Source: Octopus vulgaris (Eukaryota). Taken from it: a DNA stretch of 64,000 nt. The stretch is taken from positions 18,848,001-18,912,000 of the forward strand of contig OX597837.1 in the NCBI GenBank assembly GCA_951406725.2, written 5' to 3'. Shown in pieces: positions 9,361-62,219 of this stretch (positions are counted from its first letter, which is position 1; every line of letters begins with the position of its first letter). A program made the position numbers and the translations under genes. Under the pieces are notes generated by a model. It was given only the letters and a program-made list of their open reading frames with translations, was not told where the DNA came from and did no database searches.

Positions 9361-9777
9361 TGGTTCGTGGGAGCAACTGCCTTTCAAAGCCTCATATTGT
9401 CATTAAATGCTCGAAAGGAGGAGTAGATGGACAGCTGACAACTGATGAAGGGTCGTTCTTTATGTCACTTGTCTTGTTTTCCATTTGTTTCTCTCAGTGT
9501 TCGCATACCCAACTTTGTCTTCACATTTCATGTTGTTTACATTTTGTGACGTCCTGTACCCACTTATATATGGGTGGGGATTGGCAAAATCAGTTGGTCG
9601 TTGGACAAAATACTTTGGGGTATTTAGTTGTGTTTCTTTCTATTCTTATTTTGAATCCTACCAAGGTGGCCAGCAAGAAATGGTGGTTGGTTCTAATAAC
9701 AGACTGTATCTATTCTTCTAAAATGTGAGTGTGTATATGCAGAAAATTAATATATGTTGGATTTGTCTATTTTGCAG

Positions 9778-9948
9778 ATTGAAGAGAAAGCAATAACAGA
9801 CCTCATGGCATACTACTTAGACCAGGTATCTTTTGACGAAACCATCAGTGTCGAGAGGGAATATGTCCATATAGAACAGCCATCGTGGAATGTAAACCGC
9901 AAACTCCGATACAATGAGACTCTTCTTTCCTCCCTTCCTCACTCGTAG
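9778..9948 (+). CDS. IBTK: IBTK-like gene, terminal coding exon D
   Basis: Acceptor tctattttgcag|ATT, phase 0. IEEKAITDLMAYYLDQVSFDETISVERE...PSWN...TAG resembles the human IBTK end IEEHAIQDLLVFYEAFGNPEEFVIVER...PMWN. Confidence 0.85.
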   Translation: MEEKAITDLMAYYLDQVSFDETISVEREYVHIEQPSWNVNRKLRYNETLLSSLPHS

Positions 9949-15600: not shown

Positions 15601-17015
15601 CACAGTTGTATACATATATCCAGGGTGGACTTAAAATCTGGAGACAGGTGAAAATGCTTATTTTCAATAATTCTTTTCAACAACATAAAATGAATAACAC
15701 TTTCAACAATGGACTTGTCCAAGACACTGTGTGTTTTATCCTTCATCTTTTTACTTGTTTTAGTCATTAGACTGCTGCCAAGCTGGGGCACCACCTTAAA
15801 GAATGTTTGGTCGAATGAATTGACCCCAGAACTTATTCTCTTCTTTAAGCTTGGTACTCATTCTATTCGTCACTTTTACCAAACTGCTAAATTACAAGAA
15901 ACACACCAGCAGTGGTGGGGACAAACACACTCACACATATGTATGTATATATGACAGGCTTCTTTCAGTGTCTGTCTACCAAATCCACTCACAAGGCTTT
16001 AGCTCAAGACAATTACCCAAAGTTTCATGAAGTGGGACTGAACTAGGAAGCATGTGGTTGGGAATCAAGCTTGTTACCATAGTCACATCCTAGAAGAGAG
16101 GAAAATTCTAGAAAGTCAGGAGGTATGAGATGAATATGTTTATTTCACCAGTTGATATCCATAAGATTATGATCTACATTACACTCTTATGTATTGGTTT
16201 ACTTTGTGGTTTATAACCTGGTCCACTAAAGAAGCTTTTTTGTGATTACCACTTTGCTAACTTGTGTAGTTTTGTTGAACAACTGTTGTCATATGTAGGA
16301 CAAATCTGGTTTTCAGCTAAGTCCGTCATGAAGATTGCTCTACCAACATTTTTTGACCAAGAAGGACAGGCAATTTTCTTTTGTTTAGCAACCATGGAAA
16401 AAGAAATTGTATACTGTACAAGATTGAACGAACTGAATTAAAACAATGCTCCCTTTGGTCAAGCCATCAAGTTCTTAAAGTTTGACTTGAAGAAGGAGGT
16501 ATTGCCTTCTATTGAATTTGCAGAAAGGTGGGTGGGAGTGGTGTGAATGGCTTGGAGGTGAGCCTGTTCTCATCATGTGCTTTTGGGGCAGACTGCCTGA
16601 CACTGGCCAGATTTGAAATTAGAATGTAAAGGTATGTAACAACTGAAATGTACAAATAATATTTAGTCATAACATAGGCTATAGATTTGAACAGTGGCTG
16701 CAGTTAATGATACTGATGTCTCCAAGAAGGATAAAAGGCAGAGTTGTCTCTGGGATGGTTTGAACTCACAACTTAAAGGGATACATTAAAATTGCAGAAA
16801 TTTACAAATGATTTATAAATGATAATTATTTTATGTATTTTGCTACAAAGTGTAGGGTATGGTAGTTGGTATAACTCCTTTATATACCCCTCTAGTACTT
16901 GACTGGTATATAATGTGATTGATTCCTGAAGAATGGAAAGAAAAGGCTGATTCAGCAGGATTTGAGCCCAGAAAGTCAAGGGATGTAACTAAACACCAAC
17001 AACTATAAATAAAAA

Positions 17016-17021
17016 TTTATT
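17016..17021 (-). promoter_or_regulatory. Candidate polyadenylation signal (AATAAA) of the STIP1-like gene
   Basis: tttatt on + strand about 950 bp beyond the stop codon, at the end of a largely SINE-free stretch. The motif is common in AT-rich DNA. Confidence 0.3.
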
Positions 17022-17969
17022 TATACAGTTGTATTTATCATAAATCTGTTATAGTGTTCTATAATTTTCAATTAGAGACCTAAAAACCATGTTTGAGGAG
17101 TGGAGTCATATAGTGGTGATAAGTGAGAGATGTTAACTCAAGATTGTGAGGAGAAAGGGAGATGTTATAGTGATATGTGTGAAATACTCCCTGGTCCAGT
17201 GATGTGTAAAATATAGCCAAACAGCTGCTACAAAGTACTCCTTGATCCAGTTTTGTGTGGAATGTATTTAGTCAGTGCTGATGCAATGTTGTACAATGAA
17301 GTACTCCTTGATCAATTGTTTTGTAGAATATGTTGATTCACAATAAAGTGCTACAACTCCATCCAATGTTGTAAGGTACTGCTTGAAATAATATTGTGAA
17401 GTCCTCTACAATCTCATCTTAGGAAGAATTTCCTTTAATGTGGAGTTCTGAGATATATTTTAATCCAGTAGAATATGCATGTGATATGTGTATCAATCTA
17501 GTATTGTAAAATAATCCTTTTAGTTTGGCATTGTGTGGATATTAGCATTCCATAAACCAGTTGTGAGACATGATTTTCACTGATTCTTCTTCTCCAGCTT
17601 CTGTCTTCTGAATCTTTGGTATTTTGGTGACAAATACTGTGTTAAACTCACCAAAATATACATGGATAACTCTATTATGGACAAGAACATGTTTGCTAAA
17701 CAATCTTTTTCACATTATTTTCTGAAAATATAACCAAGCATTTTATGAATATGAACTGAAGATTTCATACAAAATCAGTGAATCCTTACAATAAAAAAGG
17801 CGGGGAGAAGAAGGGTCAAAGCAGGGATAAGCAGGAGGATAAGAAAGAGAAAAAATGGCAAGTGAATTTCCAGTTTGATGTAAGAAGAATAGCAGAGAAA
17901 GGGGAGGAGGTAATTATTAATTATTGATGTAATTATTACCAGTAATATTAATACCAAAAAATTGTTACT

Positions 17970-18977
17970 TTAACATTCCTCTCCCATTACTGGATCAATT
18001 GTGAGTAAACCACATGCAATCAGTTTGTCAATCTTTTTGCGTATTTCTGGATCTTTCATATACATTGCCATAGAGTTTGGATTATTTTGCATGTCATAAA
18101 GTATTTTGCTTATTTCTGGTTCACTTAGAATGGCTCTCAATTCAGGGTTTCTCTGTATACGCCTTTGGACAACCTCTGGAGCAGTTGTGTCCAGTCCAGC
18201 TTCTTCAGAACTGATCTTGTATCCTTTTAAAGCTTCCTCACAGTTACTGTCAATATCTAAGGCCTTTTCATATTCTAGATGGGCTTTTGAAAAGGCCCTC
18301 ATCTTCCGAAATAGCTTGCCCTTGATAAGATAGGCTTGAATGTATGTAGGATCAATCCTAGAACAGGATTCTGCATCTTGCAATGATAGTGTATACTCTT
18401 GCATCTTCAGGTAGCAGAGAGCTCGGTTGTAATGTCGTCTGACATCGTTAGGACTTCTCTTAATTGCCTCAGTATAATGATTGAGAGCGTTGTTGTAATC
18501 TTTCTCTTTGAAACACTGGTTTCCTTTTTGATTTTCTTCTTCAGAAATATCAAAATTGATGTAAGCATTTTTGTGTTGTTCTTCGAGGTCCAGTTCCATC
18601 TTCTGAGCAATTTTTATCACTGCAGGATTTCTGTCTTCTATAATAGAATAGTCATAAAACTTCAGGGAATTCTCTAAATCGTTCAGTTTTTCATATGCTT
18701 TAGCCAAACGGTAATATGTTTTTGCTAAAGTTTTTCTATCAACCTTATTTTTGGGGTCCAACTTCAAAGCATTTTTGCAAAGTTCTACACATTCCTGGTA
18801 TTTTCCTTGATCAAGAAACACTGCTGCCTTGTTATTAATTACTGTTATATTATTAGGATCATACTCCAAAGCAATCTCATAATGTTTCAGAGCTTCATCA
18901 AAATTCTTTGCCTTGTATTCATCATTACCTTTAATTTTTTCTTCATCACACAATCTGCTCTGTTCTTTGTTATCCAT
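17970..18977 (-). CDS. STIP1/HOP (Hsp70-Hsp90 organising protein)-like protein, 335 aa, TPR2A-TPR2B-DP2 only, uninterrupted CDS
   Basis: Intact ORF. TPR motifs EKIKGNDEYK..FDEALKHY, NNKAAVF, LAKTYYR, AYINFDISEEENQKGNQCFK, YTEAIKR, plus a DP2/STI1-like end (NPELRAILSEP...DPEIRKKIDKLIACGLL). Collinear with human STIP1 from about residue 216 onward. Probably a paralogue rather than the orthologue, so no symbol is given. Confidence 0.92.
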   Translation of the reverse strand: MDNKEQSRLCDEEKIKGNDEYKAKNFDEALKHYEIALEYDPNNITVINNKAAVFLDQGKYQECVELCKNALKLDPKNKVDRKTLAKTYYRLAKAYEKLNDLENSLKFYDYSIIEDRNPAVIKIAQKMELDLEEQHKNAYINFDISEEENQKGNQCFKEKDYNNALNHYTEAIKRSPNDVRRHYNRALCYLKMQEYTLSLQDAESCSRIDPTYIQAYLIKGKLFRKMRAFSKAHLEYEKALDIDSNCEEALKGYKISSEEAGLDTTAPEVVQRRIQRNPELRAILSEPEISKILYDMQNNPNSMAMYMKDPEIRKKIDKLIACGLLTIDPVMGEEC

Positions 18978-19077
18978 TGTTCAGAGATGAAGGGTTTTCC
19001 TCCAAATTAAACAAACTCAAATGAACATGAAAGTCATTGGAAGGTTATTCCAATAAAAATTTACATCTGAAGTCAGT

Positions 19078-19090
19078 CTGTGAAGAAACA
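19078..19090 (-). other. Candidate splice acceptor of a 5'-UTR intron, 100 nt upstream of the STIP1-like ATG
   Basis: Minus strand reads atgtttcttcacag|actgac. Confidence 0.45.
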
Positions 19091-20949
19091 TATAATATAT
19101 TTATCAGTTTGAAGACATTAAGTAGAATATTTTGCTTTTAACACATGAAGATGACTATTACTGAGCTGTATTGAATTTTTGGTGTGAAAAACACCTCAAT
19201 AACTCCAGCAGAATAATTTAACAACCAATCAACAAAATTATTTCATTCACTAGTTGGTTTTACCTCATAATATAGCTAGATAGCATTAATGATTGCAAAC
19301 TGTAGCCTGCAGCAGACTGGGGTGGGGGTCAATGAAACACACAATTTGTTGCTATGGCAAGGTTAAGTCCACGTAATGAGATTTCTCTAGATTAATGTTG
19401 AGTAAAGAAGAGAAATAGGGTTGAGTGTGGGCAGATTAGTGAAATCCACAATTAGGCTAATAGCATTTAATGTGCCAGGGATTTAACTTAATACAATACT
19501 TCAGTTGTATGCGCATTTCAGTATTATACATTATTCACTAATATACATACTTCAATATTATACACACTTCAAAGGCAGTGAGCTGACGGAATCGTTAGTA
19601 CACTGGGTAAAATGATCAATGGAATTTCATCTGTCTTTACGTTCTGAGTTCAAATTTCACCAAGGTCAACTTTGCTTCTATCCTTTTGAGGTCAACAAAA
19701 TAGTACCAGTTGAGCACTGGAGTGAATACCACTCTTGGATACCACTCAATAACTGCACAGACTCACCTGTTGTCTGCGAATCTTGTGACATGTCTGGCCA
19801 GCAGAATTATATATATAGTCTGGTGTAGTCTTAGGCCTGGCCAGTTCATGTCAAACTGTCCTATCCATGCCAGCATGAAAAACAGACATTAAATGATGGT
19901 GATGATGATATATATATATACACACACACACGCGCGTGCACACACACACACACCATATTCACATATCTTAATATATCTTTTATCATTTACTTGTTTCAGT
20001 CATTGGACTGTGGCCATGCTGGGGTGATGCCCTGAAGGGTTTTAGTTGAATAACTTGACCCCAGTACTATTTTTTAAAGCCTGGTACTTATTCTATTGGT
20101 CTCTTTTGCTGAACTGCTAAACTGTGGGGATGAAAATTGCTGGTCTTGTGCCAAAATTTGAAGCCAATATTATACACACTTCAGTATTATACATACTTCA
20201 ATATAATACATACTTTGCCTGTAACTGTGTGGTAAGAAACTCGCTTCCCAACAATATGGTTCTGGGTTCAGTCCCATTGTATGTCACCTTGGGCAAGTGT
20301 CTTCTACTATAGCCTTGGACTTACCAAAGCTTTGTCAGTGGATTTGGTAGATAGAAACTGAGAGAAGCCTGTTGTATATGTATGTGTATGTGTATGTGTG
20401 TGGACAAGGGGGTTTATTTTGTGAATGAGGAAAACTAGACCGACATACATTGAAAGTATCTACCTTCTTATGACTATCCTTCACACCCAATGAGTAGTAT
20501 TGATTCAATTATTTCTTTAGACAAACTCATATTCAATTTGTGAAAGAAAAAAAAGCAAGAATATGACTGATGTTTTCCATGTATCCAAACTTTATAGTTA
20601 CCCTTCTATATATGATGAGCATCTTCCAGTTTCCACCTACCAACCATACAGGAATTTAAATTTCAAATTTTCATTGAAATTTCAGTCTAAGTTAATTTTA
20701 AAGCATTTTTTGGTTTCTATAGATTTTCAACATCCTAGTGAACTGAGTATTAAAAATAAAAATTAAAAAACATAGATAATTATAGGTGCAGCATTGGTAT
20801 GTTCATGTTCCTGTAATAGTGTCATTGGCACAAACAACAGAAAAAGAAATAGAATTCATGTATTTTGAAAAAAAAAAAAAGTTCAATGCAATCAAGTTTC
20901 TGTCAATGAGATTCTGTTGTGAATTCCATTTAGCATTACACTGTACCAC

Positions 20950-23170
20950 TATATCGATTTGACAGAATTATGCATTTCTTTCTCTTAATCTCTTTCTCAT
21001 CTGACCTTCTAGGTAAGAGAGATGAAGGCATTTAGTTATCCAGAACATGGATCCATAGAAAGGTTATAAACATATAGCTCTTCTGTTAAGAGGGAGATAC
21101 CTTACTTACTAAACTCCTTTAGTACAACTAACCAAACTTTCAACCACACTTTGCTGCTCATTTATGCTTTCCTTCTGCTCAAACTGCAGGCAGAACTGAA
21201 GAGACCATTATTCTCATCCAAACCATGTTTGGGTAAGAATACCAATACTCTATTTTTACACTCAATCATGCTTCATAAAAGTTGCTGGAGAAAAACACTT
21301 CCCTCTCTACCCTTACCACCAAGAGGTAATCCTTTTAGTAGGAAAGAAAATACCCTGTCCTAATCCCTTTCAGACCTGTCCATCTTTCTTCTTAGACACA
21401 TGCAAAGGAAAGGTGTCAGTCCTCCTTGGAAAAAGGAAGGTAGTAAGATGATCTCCACAAGAGAATCAGACAATAGCCAAATCTGTCCAACACATAATAA
21501 CTGTCAACATAATTCCATAAGATAGCAATGGACCAGTGCATGGAAAATGGTTTTACCCTCCCTCCCCACACACATACCACATCTTAGACCAATACAGTTG
21601 TACCTGTAGATAACACTTTAGAACTAAAGTCTTTTAGATATTATCCATAATTCCTATACGGAAAGCCTTACAGAATAGTCTCTGCAGAACATCTTCGATG
21701 ACATTGTAAATATCTTCTCCACTGACCTACTATAGGACATGTGGATTTGGTAGATGTTTAGCGAGGTGAAAAAGATGAATGTGGCCAAGGCCTTGATAAC
21801 ATTATAATCTTCTGGTTTCAAACAATTCATGATAGAGAGCATCAAGAAATATGAAGACAAGTTAAAGTTAACTGCCACATTTATTTCGTCACTAATAGAA
21901 GATACAGCAAACTGGTACACATGACTAATTCTGTCAATAAAAATACGTTGGTTTCTCATGCCACTTGAACATGAAGAAGTGTGCAGGAAAAGCATAAAAC
22001 ATGGCAACAAAAATCTCTGCTGACAATTCTCTCTTCACTGGTATCTCAAAAGAAATTCTTTATTTTTATAGCCATCAGGTGGGCTCAAAACAGACCACAT
22101 GTTTTCTGTGGTGGCCTGAGCTCTAATTAGCATCCAATTAGCATGTACAAGTGGTCAAGTGACCACTTGTAGAAAAACCAATGTAGGAGCCAAAATGGGC
22201 CAAAATGGGCCTATTTAAGTCTAGACAACTAAATAATGAAAATAGCATTCACTGCAGATGCAACATTGTAGATGTCAAATGTCCATCTTTGGTTTCTGCT
22301 CGATCCAGGACTGCAGTTAAGGTAATGAGCTGATGGAAACATGTTGCTGACAAATTATGGCTTCACTTGCTCTTTGTCCTGGAATCTGGCAGATGCTACA
22401 GCATCAGCTAATGCTTGTACACCATCAGCCATGTTATTTCATGACGCTTCTTAGAATAATTCTGGTTGTTGAATCTCTCAACTAAAAGAACATGTCTCTT
22501 TCTCTTGTAACAAAGGATCAAACGTTCCAATCTAGTCAGGTATTGCATGGTGGTAAGGTATGTTGATGAAAAAGTAAATCATGTACCCATTGCTCAACCT
22601 TCCATTGATAACTTCCTCACAGCACATGAACAGGGACAAGGTGAGAACCAGGGTGGCTGACTCAGGGAGTGGGTCAGCCACTGTGGTTCTCACCTTGTCC
22701 CAGTTCATACTTGCATGTTTGAACCAAACTGGACCCCAAGTATTTTAAACATACTTTGAGTTTAGTGACGATCACTAGTTGGTATGACCTCCCTCTGTGC
22801 TGAGTTTCAAGCCAACCAGCTTATCTCAGTTAATCTGCATTACATTTCTATAGCTGAATGCCAATCACATACCTGAAATATCAGGCAACTTGATAGTGAC
22901 ATCAGTTTCTTACATAGGTAGCATGCTCCAATATCTCATATCAAAGGGAATATTCCTCATTACTTCCATATTATGAGTTCATAAGACAAGCAGCACAAAG
23001 AAGGTACTGAAGATACCCAAATGAACACCAATTCATCTCATTAGCTAAATTTACTACAGGTATAAATTTGCACCAAAACATGAATCAACCTAACAAAGTC
23101 CTTTCAACACTCCCTATTAGCTATAAACAGGCCAATCAACTAGGCTCATTAAATTCTGTGAACCTTTTGA
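20950..23170. mobile_element. Highly degenerate element, possibly DIRS-like (tyrosine recombinase)
   Basis: Non-microsatellite, higher-GC block. Minus-strand peptide ..YNVIKALATFIFFTSLNIYQI.. weakly resembles the recombinase H-x-x-R box region. The assignment is tentative. Confidence 0.25.
22626..22708. repeat. 83-nt GC-rich hairpin (39-bp arms, 5-nt loop)
   Basis: atgaacagggacaaggtgagaaccagggtggctgactca-gggag-tgggtcagccactgtggttctcaccttgtcccagttcat. Confidence 0.9.
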
Positions 23171-24660
23171 CAGATTATCCAAAGTTAATCAAATAGAAGT
23201 TGATTGTCTTTCCACATGGTTGGTTCACCAGTCTGTTTCATTCTCTCACTAGATTAACAAATACCTACTAATATTCAAATTAGCGAATTTGTTTTTCTTT
23301 CTTGGCATACACTTGCGAATCTTTTTAGCTTGATAAGCTTTAACTCTATAGAAAGAACTTAATATCCCACTCTTTAACAAAAAATAAATTGCTGGTTTGC
23401 AACATTCCTCTCTTCTCCCCCCCCACCACTTTCTTTGGACATCTGTTGGCTTCCAATCTTTGAAATTTTTCATAATGAATTTAGTTATTCACTTGTTCCA
23501 GAAAATTTTTTGAAAAGTGTTACATAGCTTTAAAGTTTGATTATTTTTACATAATCAGAAAACAGATTTGGAAGGTGACATTTTCTGCATGACAACTTTT
23601 ATCAAACAAAATAAAAGCAATATATTGTAAAAGTTCTTTATTTAAAATCCTGTGTAGTTAAATTAGAACTGATTGCAAACTGGAGGAGGAGAAGGGATAG
23701 GATTATTTGTTAGCTGAAAGGACAATGTTATCTTTTTTTTTTTTAATTTCTGGGTATATAGAGAGAATGAGCTTGGTTTCTTGACACCTATACTTGTCCA
23801 ATGGGTGATAGAATCCTGTTGTTAAAACAGTGAAAGAGGGCTCCTTAGACTCGATAATTCACAGAATTTTCTGAAAATCAAAACAAAGGTAAAGCTTCTA
23901 GCTTTTTCCAATGATTTAGTATTTAAACTGAACATACCTACACAGTGTGCCCCCAACTTTGTTTCTTCATAACCCAGAAAAAAAATTTATATTTTTTAAT
24001 GAAATTTTTTAAAAATACACTTCAAATTGTGTACATTCTTATTATATTGGAATTTGTCATGAAAAAACACTTTCTGTAGGTGGGGAGAGGAGTTTCAGAA
24101 AATTCACATGAGTTAGCTTTGCTTCCCTATAACTTTCAGAAAAATTGGTACTTTTTTAAATGAAATTTACCTCCTGTCAGTTATATCGGAATTTAATAAA
24201 AATAAAAATGGTGAACACACATACATACTGACACATCACAATTTTTTTCGAAATTTTAAGTATGATTCTGTAGATGTACAATGATGTGTACGTATAAGTA
24301 CACCCATTTTTTTTCATATGAAATTCTGATATAATCCTAATCCACACACTGAAAGGTGTCTGTTGAAAATTTCATATATAAAAAAAAAAAAACGGTAAAT
24401 TTGGACAAGTACACCTACACACGGTTCACTAGGAAAAAACAAAACTTGTATTTTTCACACACAAACACAAAAATATCTCCAGGATATATATTCTTGAGAG
24501 TGTAGATTACAATTCAGTTTTGTCTTTTACTTGTTTCAGGCAGTGGACTGTGGTCTCACTAGGACACAGACTTGAAATGTTTTGTCAAATAAATCTTTAT
24601 ATTGATAAAATTTAGAAAAACGTTTTTGAGAAGAATTTTATATTATTCTTTATCTCTCCT

Positions 24661-24883: not shown

Positions 24884-25441
24884 GGACCGACAGATTTAAA
24901 AAATAATTTTTTGAACTAAACACTTTCATACTTCTGACAGTGGTAGAATGTGTCATATAAAACATCTTTTACTCTTAGCGTTTTTGAGAAAAGCTTATAT
25001 TTAGGAAGTTATTTCATGTTAAAGTTCTCATATTTCGGTAATTTCAACCAATCAATGACGTGTATTCAGCTGAATAAAATTACTGCTGTTGTTTGTCAAC
25101 AACAACTATCGGAGGTGTATATTTCGTTTGTCACTGTTATTTATGACATCGTTCGAGCGTTTGTACTGGTTTTAGCTTTAAGTTTTTAGGATTAGGGTTA
25201 GGGTTTAGGGTTAGAGTTAGGGTTTTAGGATTAGGATTAGGGTTTTAGGGTTAGGATTGTCATAAATAACAGTGACAAACGAAATATACACCACCGGAAG
25301 TTCTTGTTGATAAACAACAGCAGTAATTTTATTCAGCTGAATACACGTCATTGATTGGTTGAAATTACCGAAATACTACAACTTTAACGTGAAATATAAG
25401 CTTTTCTCAAAACGCTAAGAATAATAAGGGGTTTGCGGTCC
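24884..25441. mobile_element. MITE-like palindrome with a telomeric-repeat core
   Basis: Arms 24973-25148 and 25258-25420 are near-perfect reverse complements; putative termini ggaccg...cggtcc. Confidence 0.8.
25186..25256 (+). repeat. Interstitial degenerate telomeric repeat (TTAGGG/TTAGGA/TTTAGGG)n
   Basis: About 11 units read directly from the sequence. Confidence 0.9.
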
Positions 25442-50512: not shown

Positions 50513-51318
50513 TTAGGTTGTCAAGAAAGTTCTTGCGGAATTTTTAATTTTGGTTTTAAATGATGTATTTTCAAATTAATTTTCGTTAAATTACTTTGAC
50601 TTTATATGTCATTTTAAAGCCCATTTTCGCTCTATCCAATTGTGTTACTCTTTTTCTTTTTGAATAATTAGGCCATTTTTTCTGGAATGTTGAATACAAC
50701 ATGAACAATAAGCAAATTCGCACAATTTTCTTATTCCAGTTCAAGCTAGGCCGAAAAGCTGCTGAAACAGCTTGCAGTATCAACGGAACCACTAATGGAT
50801 GTACAGCACAATGGTGGTTCACGGAATTTTGTAGTGGTGGCGAGAGTCTTGAAGATGATAAGCGTAGTGGTTGGCCATCAGATGTTGACAATGATCAACT
50901 AAGAGCCTTAGTCGAAGCCAATATATGCACAACTGTTTGAGAGCTTGCTTCTGAATTAGACATAATGTATACGACAATTTCCAATCACTTGAAAGAGATT
51001 GGAAAAACAAAAATACTTGAGAAATGGGTGCCGCATGAATTGAACAACAACCAAAAAAAATGCCGTTTTGAAGTGTCATCTACCCCACTTTTACACAACA
51101 AGAACGACCTGTTTCTCGACTGGATTGTGACTTGTGATGGAAAGTGGATTTTTTATGACAACTGGCAATGCTCAGCTCAGTGGTTGGATGCCAACGAAGC
51201 TCCACAGCACTTCCTGCAGTCAAAGTTGCACCAAAAGAAGGCCATGGTGACTGTTTGGTGGTCTGTGGCTGGTCTCATCCATCACAGCTTTTTGGATCCA
51301 GGTGAAACCATTACGGCA
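50513..51318 (+). mobile_element. Hsmar1/cecropia-like mariner transposon, 3'-truncated pseudogene
   Basis: TA|ttaggttg... TIR. KQIRTIFLFQFKLGRKAAETA...AQWWF..F..G.ESLEDDKRSG.PS.VDNDQLRA and KWVPHEL...IVTCDGKWIFYDN closely follow the Hsmar1 transposase. Confidence 0.9.
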
Positions 51319-51489
51319 GCTAGTTGTTGTTGTTATTATTATTAGTTCAAATTCTGCTGAGATTGATTTTGACTTTCATCTTTTTGAGGTTGATAAAATA
51401 AGTACCAGTTAAGCACTGGGGTTGATGTAATTGGCTTACTGCCACCCTCAAAATTGCTGGCTTTGTGCCAAAATCTAAAACCATTATTA

Positions 51490-54740: not shown

Positions 54741-56835
54741 CATCATCATCATCATCGTTTAACGTCCGCTTTCCATGCTAGCATGAGTTGGACGGTTCAA
54801 CTGGGGTCTGGGAAGCCCAAAGGCTGCACCAGGCCAATCAGATCTGGCAGTGTTTCTACAGCTGGATGCCCTTCCTAACGCCAACCACTCTGTGAGTGTA
54901 GTGGGTACTTTTTATGTGCCACCAACACAGGTGCCAGACGAGGCTGGCGAACGGCCACACTCGGATGGTGTTATTTATGTGCCACCGGCACGGAGGCCAG
55001 GCGAGGCTGGCACGGCCATGATCGGATGGTGTTTGTTACGTGCCACCAGCAAGGAGGCCAGTCGATCCGGTACTGGCTACGGCCACGTTCGGATGGTTTT
55101 CTTATGTGCCACCGGCAATGGTACCACAAAACTACAAATTCCATTGATGTTCATCGATTTTGATTTGATTCTTTGATTTTTGATTTTCACTTGCCTCAAC
55201 AGGTCTTCACAAGTAGAGTTATGTGTCCCAAGAAGGAAGGTATGCACAGGTGGACTGACTACATCCCAGGTAGGGGCCATGGGTTATGGCCTCACTTATC
55301 CTGCCGGGTCTTCTCGTGCACAGCATACTTCCAAAGGTCTGGTCATTTCCTCGGTGAGACCTAAAGAGTGAAGGTCGTTCTTCACCACCTCGTCCCAGGT
55401 TTTCCTGGGTCTACCTCTTCCACAGGTTCCCTCAACCGCTAGGGTGTGGCACTTTTTCACACAACTATCTTCATCCATTCTTACTATGTGTCCATACCAG
55501 CATAGACGCCTCTCTTGCACACCACATCTGATGCTTCTTAGGTCCAACTTTTCTCTCAAGGCACTTACACTCTGTTGGGTATGAACACTGACATTACACA
55601 TCCAACGGAGCATACTGGCTTCATTTCTTGCGAGCTTACACATATCATCAGCAGTCACGGCCCATGTTTCACTGCCATGTAGCATGGCTGTTCGCACACA
55701 TGCATCATACAGTCTGCCTTTTACTCTGAGCGAGAGGTAAGAGCTCTCTGAACTTTGCCCAGGCTATTCTTATTCTAGCAGTTACACTTTCGGCACACCC
55801 ACCCCTTCTACTGACTTGGTCACCTAGGTAACGGAAACTATCAACTATTTCAAGTTTTTCTCCCTGGAATGTGGCGGAAGTTGGTCTCAGCATTTTCAGT
55901 GTTTTTTGCTCCTGAGCATCTGTCACATACAAAAACTATATTCCTAGTTAGCCTTCCTTTGACATTGCTGCACCTCTTATGTGTCCATAGCTTACACTTG
56001 GTGCATCTTATAGAGTTCCTACCTACGCCTTTTCTACAGATCAAGCAGGGCCATTTACCTGAAGGCGTTTGAGATTTGTCTACCTTCCTACTTATTAGGA
56101 CTTTGGTTTTAGCTAGATTGACTCTAAGGCCCTTTGATTCTAATCCTTGCTTCCACACCTGAAATTTCTCCTCCAGTTCTGATAGTGACTCAGCAATTAG
56201 AGCAAGGTCATCAGCATAGAGGAGCTCCCAGGGGCATCCTGTCTTGAATTCCTCCGTTATTGCCTGAAGGACTATGATAAATAGGAGGGGGCTGAGGACT
56301 GAGCCTTGGTGGACCCCAACCTCCACCCGGAATTCTTCACTGTACTCGTTGCCAACCCTCACCTTACTGACAGCGTCCCTGTACAGGGCACGCACAGCTC
56401 TCACTAGCCATTCATCTATCCTTAGTTTCCTCATTGACCACTAGATAAGGGAACGGGGGGGACCCTGTCAAAGGCTTTCTCCAGGTACAGAGTTTTATCT
56501 TTGGCTAGGTATTTCTCCTGCAGCTGTCTCACCAGAAATATGGCATCAGTGGTGCTTTTCCCTGGCACGAAACCAAACTGCATCTCGTCTAGGTTGACTC
56601 TCTCTCTAATCAGTTGGGCTATGACCCTTTCCGTAACCTTCATTACCTGATCCAACAGCTTGATACCTCTGTAATTACTTGTATCTAGGGCATCACCTTT
56701 ACCTTTGTAGCAGTTGACTATTATGCTACTACACCAGTCATTGGGTATGACTCCTTCGTGTATCACCTGGTTAACTATACGGGTGACTAGGCTATAGCCG
56801 ACACTGCCAGATATTTTGAGCATCTCAGCAGTAAT
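54741..56835 (-). mobile_element. 5'-truncated RTE-clade LINE (RT, PHD-like finger, 3' UTR, (ATG)n tail), frameshifted
   Basis: YKGKGD...NYRGIKLL, QFGFVPGKSTTDAIF, LEKAFDRVP, GVHQGSVLSPLLF, LLYADDL, FRYLG, MLHGSETW, GRGRPRKTW across ORFs 56431-56823, 55850-56434, 55705-55932 and 55296-55697. Confidence 0.95.
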
Positions 56836-58899: not shown

Positions 58900-60366
58900 T
58901 TAAAGGCCAGGCTATGGTCTTCATAACATGTGAAGGAGCATGGCTTAGGGGTTAGAGCGTCAGGTTCACAATCATGAGGTAGTGAGTTTGATTCCTGGAC
59001 TGGGCTATGTGGTGTGTTCTTGAGCAAAAAACTTTATTTCACATTGCTCTGGTTTACTCAGCTGTAGAAATGAGTTGTGATGTCACTGGTGCCAAGCTGT
59101 GTCAGCTTCTGCCTTGACTTTGGATAACATCAGTGGCGTGGAGAGGAGAGGCTGGTATACATGGGTGACTGCTGGTCTTCCTTAAACAACCTTGCCCAAA
59201 CTTGTGCCTTGGAGGGTAACATTCTGGATGCAATGCCATGGTCATTCATGACTGAAGGGGGTCTTTACTCCTTACCCTTTTCATGATCCTAATAGATCGT
59301 ATCTCAGCTTTTAAAATTATTACCTTATATAAAAGTGAATGTATATGTTTCACGTTGTAGGCCATTGTTTGGCTCTTAAGTGACTGGAATTTGGCACAGA
59401 AGCATATCTTTCCCTGTTGCATCTACTGAGTTTTGTTCTTTTGAACATCTGATAGAAAAACTAAAACCATTGTATATACTTGTCCCAAGAACTAAACTAG
59501 GGAGTGAGAAAAATTTGTCTTTTATTTTTTATCTTTTACTTGTTTCAGTTATTTGACTGTGACCATGCTGGGGCACCACCTTGAAGGGTTTTAGTCAAAC
59601 AAATTGACCTCAAGACTTATTTTTTAAAACTCTGGCACTTATTCTATCAGTCTCTTTTGTTGAACTGCTAAGTTTTGGGTATGTAAACACACCAACACTG
59701 GTGGTCAAGCGGTAGTGGGGGACAAAGACACACACACTCACACACTACATATATATGCGACAGTCTTCTTTCAGTTTCCATTTACCAAATCCACTCACAA
59801 GCCTTTGTTCACCCCCAGGCTATAGTAGAAGATATTTGCCCAAAGTATCATGAAGTGGGACTGAACCTGAAACCATGAGGTTGGAAAGCAAGCTTCTTAT
59901 TACACAACCACACCTGCTCCTATAATGATTAGAAAAATAATTAATTTCCCATAATTATGTAAATTAGTACACTATTTTGAAAAAAATAGTTTCCCTCAAT
60001 ATAAAAAATTATTTTCTATATTTTGTTCATTATTTTTTTGCATATTCTTATGAATTCACTTCAACCATCTTCTGGATGCCTTGGATTCAAGAATTCTGAA
60101 AGAATCAACATTCCCAAACCGACTGAAGATAGTGAACATCTTTTTAAGAATACTTTATTCAAAATATAGTGAAATCATGTTATAGTATTTATTTTGGGAA
60201 TTATCTTGGGTAAAATCCAAAACCTTAGAATGGTTAATAACAGTCTGTGTTGACAACATTTAATCCATAAAAGAGTTGATAAAAGAATTTTGCAAGATAG
60301 AAAAAGAATTTAGTAAATTCAGCTGCCGTGGGGATTGGAGAATGTCATAGGTTTCAAACTTTTGCA

Positions 60367-61897
60367 CTTCATACGAGAGAGTGGGAGGGAGTGAATGTAA
60401 TTGTGCTGTACATATGAGAGAGTGGGAGGAGTGAATGTAATTGTGCTGTACATATGAGAGAGTGGGAGGGAGTGAATGTAATTGTCCTGTACATATGAGA
60501 GAGTGGGAGGGAGTGAATGTAATTGTGCTGTACATATGAGAGAGTGGGAGGAGTGAATGTAATTGTGCTGTACATATGAGAGAGTGGGAGGAGTGAATAT
60601 AATTGTGCTGTACATATGAGAGAGTGGGAGGAGTGAATGCAATTGTGCTGTACATATGAGAGAGTGGGAGGAGTGAATGCAATTGTGCTGTACATATGAG
60701 AGAGTGGGAGGAGTGAATGTAATTGTGCTGTACATATGAGAGATTGCGAGGAGTGAATGTAATTGTGCTGTACATATGAGAGAGTGGGAGGAGTGAATGT
60801 AATTGTGCTGTACATATGAGAGAGTGGGAGGAGTGAATGTAATTGTGCTCTTCATATGAGAGAGTGGGAGGAGTGAATGTAATTGTGCTGTACATATGAG
60901 AGAGTGGGAGGAGTGAATATAATTGTGCTGTACATATGAGAGAGTGGGAGGAGTGAATGTGCAATTGTGCTGTACATATGAGAGAGTGGGAGGAGTGAAT
61001 GCAATTGTGCTGTACATATGAGAGAGTGGGAGGAGTGAATGTAATTGTGCTGTACATATGAGAGAGTGGGAGGAGTGAATGTAATTGTGCTCTTCATATG
61101 AGAGAGTGGGAGGAGTGAATGTAATTGTGCTGTACATATGAGAGAGTGGGAGGAGTGAATGTAATTGTGCTCTTCATATGAGAGAGTGGGAGGAGTGAAT
61201 GTAATTGTGCTGTACATATGAGAGAGTGAGAGGAGTGAATGTAATTGTGCTGTACATATGAGAGAGTGGGAGGAGTGAATGTAATTGTGCTGTACATATG
61301 AGAGAGTGGGAGGAGTGAATGTAATTGTGCTCTTCATATGAGAGAGTGGGAGGAGTGAATGTAATTGTGCTCTTCATATGAGAGAGTGGGAGGAGTGAAT
61401 GTAATTGTGCTGTACATATGAGAGAGTGGGAGGAGTGAATGTAATTGTCCTGTACATATGAGAGAGTGGGAGGAGTGAATGTAATTGTCCTGTACATATG
61501 AGAGAGTGGGAGGAGTGAATGTAATTGTGCTGTACATATGAGAGAGTGGGAGGATGAATGTAATTTTGCTCTTCATATGAGAGAGTGGGAGGAGTGAATG
61601 TAATTGTGCTGTACATATGAGAGAGTGGGAGGAGTGAATGTAATTGTGCTGTACATATGAGAGAGTGGGAGGAGTGAATGTAATTGTGCTGTACATATGA
61701 GAGAGTGGGAGGAGTGAATGTAATTGTGCTCTTCATATGAGAGAGTGGGAGGATGAATGTAATTTTGCTCTTCATATGAGAGAGTGGGAGGAGTGAATGT
61801 AATTGTGCTGTACATATGAGAGAGTGGGAGGAGTGAATGTAATTGTGCTGTACATATGAGAGAGTGGGAGGAGTGAATGTAATTGTGCTGTTCATAT
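60367..61897. repeat. 40-bp minisatellite, ~38 units (GAGAGAGTGGGAGGAGTGAATGTAATTGTGCTGTACATAT)
   Basis: Head-to-tail near-identical units with no spacers; recurring variants tcttcatat, tgcaatt, gtcctg and 39/41-bp units. Confidence 0.97.
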
Positions 61898-62219
61898 TGT
61901 TCATATTGATGTGTAGTTTTTCTGTGTGAGTTTAGATTTGGGAACATTAACTTAATTCTGTTTTGATGCAAAGCTGGCCAATGAGCATAGGTGTAAGCCT
62001 GTGGTTCTTCTCTCTAAGTGCCATCAGATCATTGTTTCTAGATGCTGTGCGGTCTCTTTCCCTCACCACCCTAAAGTCACTCTCTCAAAGTAACTGTGAT
62101 GTCACTCTCTCTCTAAGTGCCTGCAGCATTCTCCTTCTTTGTACCATAAGTCTAGGTACTGTGAAATCACTCTCTCTAAGTGCCTATAGTTACCATTATG
62201 TTAGATTATCTAAATACCT

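Follow-up and report, generated by a model that had tools for sequence, protein, structure and literature searches.

An intronless octopod HOP-like protein with a conserved Hsp90 clamp and a degenerate Hsp70 clamp

Results

A HOP-like gene in a single exon

We analysed a stretch of 64,000 nucleotides of the Octopus vulgaris genome (assembly GCA_951406725.2, contig OX597837.1, positions 18,848,001 to 18,912,000), referred to here as the window. Its minus strand carries an open reading frame with an intronless coding sequence, in which Pfam recognises TPR repeats followed by a STI1/HOP DP domain at the C-terminus. A phmmer search aligns amino acids 7-327 of the octopus protein with residues 222-542 of human HOP (7kw7_E) with zero gaps, which confirms the constant offset of 215 to human numbering used in the preliminary description of this locus. 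The protein contains the TPR2A-TPR2B-DP2 module homologous to HOP, and this places it in the STI1/HOP family. The gene and its domains are laid out as follows.

16506..19255, minus strand: unspliced transcribed unit, represented by one presumed-RNA contig, with a leader of ~280 nt, the coding sequence and a trailer of ~1.5 kb
17970..18977, minus strand: coding sequence of the HOP-like protein, single exon, 335 amino acids, TPR2A-TPR2B-DP2, stop codon counted in
18576..18956, minus strand: TPR2A (amino acids 8-134), clamp K14/N18/N49/K86/R90 intact, predicted site for the Hsp90 MEEVD tail
18207..18575, minus strand: TPR2B (amino acids 135-257), fold retained, EEVD clamp degenerate
18018..18176, minus strand: DP2, a STI1/HOP DP domain (amino acids 268-320; PF17830, 66.8 bits), with L293, the equivalent of L508, kept

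The N-terminal TPR1-DP1 part of the canonical five-domain HOP is missing from the octopus protein. The TPR1-DP1 profile has no match in the window beyond the HOP-like ORF. Upstream exons encoding this part are ruled out by an in-frame TGA two codons 5' of the ATG, by the colinear unspliced contig and by the lack of any HMM or tblastn remnant in the window. The leader of the presumed transcript (18978-19255, 278 nt) carries seven upstream ATGs, which could dampen translation.

Elsewhere in the window, Pfam identified no cellular gene next to the HOP-like one among 145 ORF pieces, selected out of 185 that had passed a filter applied to 538. Positions 9775-9948 on the plus strand are likely the last coding exon of a neighbour gene, encoding a 57-amino-acid peptide and convergent on the HOP-like gene: in four presumed-RNA runs the contig match breaks off at 9775, beside an acceptor-like site. 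For this exon the Atlas gave only leads scoring below 0.8. LINE-type reverse transcriptase fragments with a PHD-like finger lie at 55299-56835 (minus strand), and a transposase fragment with a partial DDE domain at 50941-51342 (plus strand). Positions 60260-61931 are taken up by a long tandem repeat whose minus strand contains open frames, and 25184-25255 by a short degenerate TTAGGG-like array.

Changes on the Hsp70-facing side

The alignment with human HOP bears out the residue assignments made earlier for both clamps. The TPR2A clamp is fully conserved, K14/N18/N49/K86/R90 corresponding to K229/N233/N264/K301/R305. In TPR2B all three basic clamp residues are replaced, with N149, Q214 and I218 standing for K364, K429 and R433, and the two asparagines N153 and N184 are retained. 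The altered positions are located as follows.

18531..18533, minus strand: N149 for K364, by alignment with human HOP
18324..18338, minus strand: Q214 (18336-18338) and I218 (18324-18326) for K429 and R433, by alignment with human HOP
18417..18431, minus strand: Y183-N184-R185-A186-L187, with N184 kept and the bulky Y183 and L187 for S398 and A402
18735..18737, minus strand: R81 for the aromatic Y296, R in all six octopod sequences

By analogy, Y183 and L187 probably face the TPR2B groove; position 183 is H in one octopod sequence and position 187 is V in Argonauta. K191, R185 and K219 of TPR2B are also retained and, with N153 and N184, could leave some residual affinity for Hsp70. The replaced R433 presumably corresponds to R469 of yeast Sti1, judging from the alignment to 3uq3 and the yeast numbering.

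In yeast, TPR2B is reported as the high-affinity Hsp70 site, and the groove mutation R469A as lowering the affinity for Hsp70 (PMC4403447). The account of the cryo-EM loading complex places the Hsp90 tail in TPR2A and the Hsp70 tail in TPR2B, and describes HOP Y296 as inserting into the Hsp70 NBD, Y354/R389/E385/K388 as setting the interdomain angle and L508 of DP2 as touching the client (bioRxiv 10.1101/2020.11.05.370247). The octopus protein lacks two of these features of a bridging HOP: none of the three basic residues of the TPR2B clamp is present (0/3), and there is no aromatic residue at 296.

Conservation of the Hsp90-facing side

The window protein retains the whole interdomain network Y354/E385/K388/R389 and also L508 of DP2. 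One octopod sequence (P0032) has N for K388, and the first lysine of the TPR2A clamp is R in three of the six, the rest of the K/N/N/K/R clamp being present. TPR2A carries the further changes E271D and N308K. DP2 identity to animal HOPs is 38% for the octopod protein against 73% for Mya, and the strong divergence of the whole protein means that DP2 and the Hsp90-surface contacts may have changed as well. An AF2 model of the octopus HOP (pLDDT 89.7, pTM 0.56) fits yeast TPR2A-TPR2B with an rmsd of 2.1 A over 256 columns and, for TPR2A, the structures 1elr and 2nc9 with 1.6-1.7 A, although its interdomain angle and its fit to HOP may reflect memorised HOP structures.

Fixation of the changes in octopods

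For comparison we used the 367 of 389 fetched proteins that passed a coverage filter, six from octopods and 361 from elsewhere; this set is redundant and weighted to animals, and the counts are therefore descriptive. All six octopod sequences are 335 amino acids long. The octopod cluster (90%) holds Octopus sinensis (99% identical), O. bimaculoides (97%) and one further member, and two near-identical records of Argonauta hians are 72-73% identical to the octopus HOP. The preliminary description had named orthologues with K/K/R as evidence that would speak against a loss of the clamp. None of the six octopod sequences retains K/K/R, and the combination N/Q/(I or V) is fixed in all six, including Argonauta, which has V at 218. 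The matches include no orthologue from squid, cuttlefish or Nautilus, although the Argonauta cluster would conceal any with an identity of 50% or more.

The 361 non-octopod proteins have three basic TPR2B residues in 345 cases, two in 12, one in 4 (two of these four reflecting gaps) and none in 0. Taken singly, position 364 is K or R in 348 of these proteins, position 429 in 358 and position 433 in 357. None of the 361 has Q at 429 or I/V at 433, and nine have N at 364; the latter alone is not diagnostic, and it is Q214 and I218 that carry the signal. An aromatic residue (F/Y/W) is present at 296 in 346 of the 361, S at 398 in 322 and A at 402 in 323. Two full-length STI1 proteins of the set, P0231 and P0221, show a partly decayed TPR2B clamp (N-I-N-D-K and N-T-N-E-R) with TPR1 apparently intact.

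We counted 110 columns that are conserved in at least 85% of 270 other STI1 proteins; the five octopod sequences used for this count, which preceded the six-sequence counts, all lack 14 of them. Five of these 14 belong to the TPR2B groove: the clamp contributes three, and the other two are S398 to Y/H and A402 to L/V. A further one is Y296 to R in TPR2A. Loss affects four of the six Hsp70-contact columns but none of the ten Hsp90-clamp, network or L508 columns (0/10; Fisher p=0.008; p=0.002 against all other conserved columns), p-values with some circularity, since the finding was first raised by three of these six Hsp70 sites. Y296 is the only independent site, and by itself its loss has a chance of about 1 in 10, given that 10 of the 104 remaining conserved columns are lost too.

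The octopod stem in our careful tree has ~2.4 changes per column, compared with 0.1-0.4 for most other tips, and because of this long stem the tree left the placement of the octopod clade open. A quick tree from an incomplete search put the clade among lophotrochozoans with weak support. The 52 positions that are invariant in octopods and rare (<5%) in other HOPs comprise 16 in TPR2A, 18 in TPR2B, 5 in the linker and 13 in DP2. Together with the invariance of N149 and Q214 from Octopus to Argonauta, the share falling in TPR2B could suggest that the groove was remodelled to recruit a new, non-EEVD ligand to Hsp90, the protein serving as an adaptor. We regard this as distinctly improbable: variation at the groove changes is conservative (Y/H183, L/V187, I/V218), which is the behaviour of packing residues, every domain has its share of the new invariant positions, and no candidate ligand emerged.

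Selection and transcription

The ORF was compared with contigs of a related species on the basis of the 24 listed differences that two runs of this species share away from the ends (28 and 30 differences in all). Seventeen are synonymous and seven are replacements, which gives a dN/dS of ~0.11 (binomial p=3e-7). The octopus HOP gene is under purifying selection. The 2666-nt presumed-RNA contig (X10) is colinear, end to end, over 16506-19255. Four presumed-RNA runs cover the ORF 5-34 deep, compared with a depth of 0-2.3 over the unique stretch 21223-23690; no run with the gene is recorded as RNA, that status being a prediction, and the contigs show neither strand nor true ends. Two presumed-RNA runs of the species label that covers the gene best (X21, X23) have no contig on the ORF, which does not prove absence of the transcript there.

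A decaying processed pseudogene would, like this gene, be intronless and strongly diverged, but its reading frame would hardly stay open over 335 amino acids in six sequences out to Argonauta or be covered by presumed-RNA contigs. The selection signal effectively refutes this explanation, to which we attach next to no probability.

Search for a second HOP and for its chaperone partners

Animal STIP1 is a multi-exon gene. We queried the assembly with the octopus HOP itself, with the STIP1 proteins of Mya, Haliotis and Pomacea and another STIP1, with the TPR2B stretch and with PF17830. Canonical STIP1 was not found in the assembly by protein, family or pattern searches, nor was an orthologous exon, which leaves the earlier suggestion that the protein competes with HOP unsupported. 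The queries otherwise matched remote TPR or STI1-domain exons at 24-52% identity, presumably those of proteins such as HIP, CHIP, RPAP3 and UNC45. Two exact motifs, chosen for their presence in 37/38 and 38/38 lophotrochozoan STIP1s, gave 12 and 7 matches in the genome, where their reversed controls gave 23 and 8. One match is a real remote TPR exon, and no match has STIP1-like surroundings. The octopus HOP ORF has diverged from both motifs and so provides no control for these searches. A control family search for Aha1 found one exon only, and the per-exon sensitivity is therefore real but incomplete, in a genome assembly of unstated completeness. Among the best 120 of 2233 and the best 120 of 1926 database matches there is no cephalopod-named canonical HOP; short HOPs score near the lower end of these matches, below which a cephalopod canonical HOP could fall. 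We regard the absence of canonical STIP1 from the assembly as very probable, and its true loss as fairly probable.

These observations bear on the possibility that a clamp-intact canonical STIP1 is absent from the assembly or was missed, and that the octopus gene represents a specialised retro-paralogue, perhaps restricted to the germline, which modulates the canonical protein or competes with it. Such a paralogue would be compatible with the same non-bridging biochemistry. In its favour, the ORF is intronless, strong constraint succeeds a very long stem, as is typical of a specialised paralogue with a persisting parent, and HOP is reported to be required by mouse embryos (PMC8629791). The limits of the database matches, the unstated completeness of the assembly and the single Aha1 exon also leave room for a hidden parent. 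Nevertheless, the genome queries returned remote TPR exons and no orthologous one, motif matches did not exceed their reversed controls, the window holds no TPR1-DP1 remnant, and no cephalopod-named canonical HOP is among the matches listed. We consider a hidden parent somewhat unlikely.

On C15, at ~71.128-71.129 Mb (L005/L018), a co-chaperone with TPR and STI1 domains is encoded by one intronless 420-aa frame, which we take to be HIP/ST13-like; a decayed copy of this gene lies on C2 (L014). An intronless 664-aa frame with TPRs and a SET/MYND-like region, presumably SMYD4-like, is found at ~58.48 Mb of C15 (L004).

An exact-pattern search of the genome recovered two Hsp70 genes ending in GPTIEEVD, both on C17, and, among 19 MEEVD-stop matches, two Hsp90 genes ending in SKMEEVD. 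The two cytosolic Hsp90 genes with this ending lie ~3 Mb apart on C25. Since the Hsp70 tails are normal, the changes in TPR2B do not track a changed Hsp70 tail, and co-evolution with an altered tail is ruled out for the two GPTIEEVD Hsp70s found.

Discussion

Judged by its sequence, the octopus HOP is a member of the STI1/HOP family that fails the tests of a bridging HOP. The retention of the TPR2A clamp, the network and L508, together with the loss of TPR1-DP1, the TPR2B clamp and Y296, suggests that this octopod-specific intronless HOP likely docks on Hsp90 and is likely unable to hold Hsp70 simultaneously, a reading that we find slightly better than evenly balanced. The preliminary description had proposed that the protein binds Hsp90 without bridging Hsp70. 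The loss of bridging is supported by the sequence and is further backed by Y183/L187, by the missing Y296, by the fixation of the changes as far as Argonauta, by purifying selection and by the normal Hsp70 tails. The term 'Hsp90-only', on the other hand, exceeds the evidence: the intact TPR2A might bind the Hsp70 EEVD tail in a binary complex, and 'non-bridging' is therefore the safer description.

Under the proposed mechanism, TPR2A would clamp the MEEVD tail of the octopus Hsp90s, while the rigid TPR2A-TPR2B body would rest on the Hsp90 middle domain, keep the dimer open and slow its ATPase. DP2 at the Hsp90 lumen would form an additional client-binding surface, and TPR2B would be retained as a scaffold, not as a peptide binder. 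Hsp70 would reach Hsp90 by direct contact, without HOP as the link. In the literature, TPR2A-TPR2B is reported to suffice for Hsp90 ATPase inhibition, DP2 to be needed for client activation (PMC8629791), and cells without HOP to use a direct Hsp70-Hsp90 complex, HOP TPR mutants rescuing proteasome activity incompletely (PMC7688965).

The ordinary function of HOP might persist all the same, with Hsp70 bound through what remains of TPR2B or, alternately, through TPR2A, and with the changes representing tolerated drift. A sole HOP might be expected to keep bridging, competitive binding is reported for C. elegans STI-1, and yeast Sti1 itself differs from the human protein at two clamp positions. 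The retained N153, N184, K191, R185 and K219 and the partial TPR2B decay of the full-length P0231 and P0221 point the same way. However, both helix-3A basic residues are non-basic in octopods, jointly with the loss of K364, a combination seen in 0/361 other proteins; bulk is added by S398Y and A402L, and the Y296 contact has gone as well. Every clamp residue is retained in C. elegans STI-1 and in the short HOPs of snails, P0231 and P0221 retain TPR1, and no compensating change is present in the octopus Hsp70 tails. We think the persistence of ordinary function unlikely. The likelihoods given here to the alternatives overlap in part.

As the sole STIP1 found in the assembly, the octopus HOP has probably replaced the ancestral gene and does not compete with it; the replacement may have proceeded by retrogene replacement or by intron loss. 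A more tentative extension, which we hold possible but would not rely on, is that octopuses and argonauts have lost canonical HOP and keep only a non-bridging one, the hand-off from Hsp70 to Hsp90 occurring by direct contact. If so, a whole animal lineage would conserve HOP solely for regulating Hsp90 conformation and for docking clients, and the gene would be a natural separation-of-function allele maintained for tens of millions of years. Whether HOP acts mainly as a bridge between Hsp70 and Hsp90 or as a regulator of Hsp90 is debated, and HOP-knockout cells are reported to fold many clients well by the direct Hsp70-Hsp90 complex (PMC8629791, PMC7688965). The octopus HOP would separate the two roles, its Hsp70 EEVD sites and Y296 contact being dropped and its Hsp90-facing parts conserved, and it is directly testable in sti1-deleted yeast or HOP-knockout cells. 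Should it be the sole HOP in octopods, bridging would be dispensable in a complex animal; should a parent gene turn up, the octopus HOP would be a specialised paralogue of more modest interest.

Comparison with known HOPs

The open-access literature searched yielded no published account of the octopus HOP; a search for octopus STIP1 matched only an oyster paper, the best 25 of 1403 cephalopod papers contain no mention of stress-induced phosphoprotein, and no natural TPR2B-dead HOP is among the literature matches listed. Compared with human HOP and yeast Sti1 (TPR1-DP1-TPR2A-TPR2B-DP2), the octopus protein is gap-free over TPR2A-TPR2B-DP2 (human HOP) and 42% identical in the fold match. The TPR2A clamp, the Y354/E385/K388/R389 network and L508 are shared. 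It differs from them in the absence of TPR1-DP1 and in its single exon, and from human HOP in K364N/K429Q/R433I, S398Y/A402L and Y296R.

The absence of TPR1 is not unusual in itself, as nematode and many snail HOPs are equally short and keep both clamps. The nearest Atlas cluster to the octopus HOP is a nematode one of 320 amino acids. C. elegans STI-1 is described as a short, three-domain HOP that lacks TPR1 and is functional without it (PMC8629791). Unlike the octopus protein, its TPR2B keeps K/N/N/K/R (alignment to 4gco), and it is a reported competitive binder of Hsc70 and Hsp90. The short HOPs of the snails Pomacea, Littorina, Batillaria, Babylonia, Nucella and Elysia (324-342 amino acids) also lack TPR1-DP1, but in all six both clamps are intact, position 296 is F and S398/A402 are present, and they sit on short branches. 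In these snails (P0327, P0328, P0331, P0338, P0345, P0388) the N-terminal module was apparently lost independently, Haliotis and Gigantopelta having full-length proteins.

Engineered Sti1 proteins, either without TPR1 or with the groove mutations R469A, R465E or N435A, have the same sites disabled as the octopus protein, and Sti1 with only TPR2A or only TPR2B mutated is reported to still complement a sti1 deletion (PMC12265868). In contrast to these constructs, the octopus HOP lacks both Hsp70 EEVD sites and Y296 together, is natural and is under purifying selection. Its single exon, with no multi-exon parent gene found in a search covering the octopus assembly GCA_951406725.2, resembles an orphan retrogene, retroposition being one possible origin. 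Amphioxus SYCP1 is reportedly such an orphan retrogene and an example of retrogene replacement. The TPR1-less short HOP as such is already known as a type.
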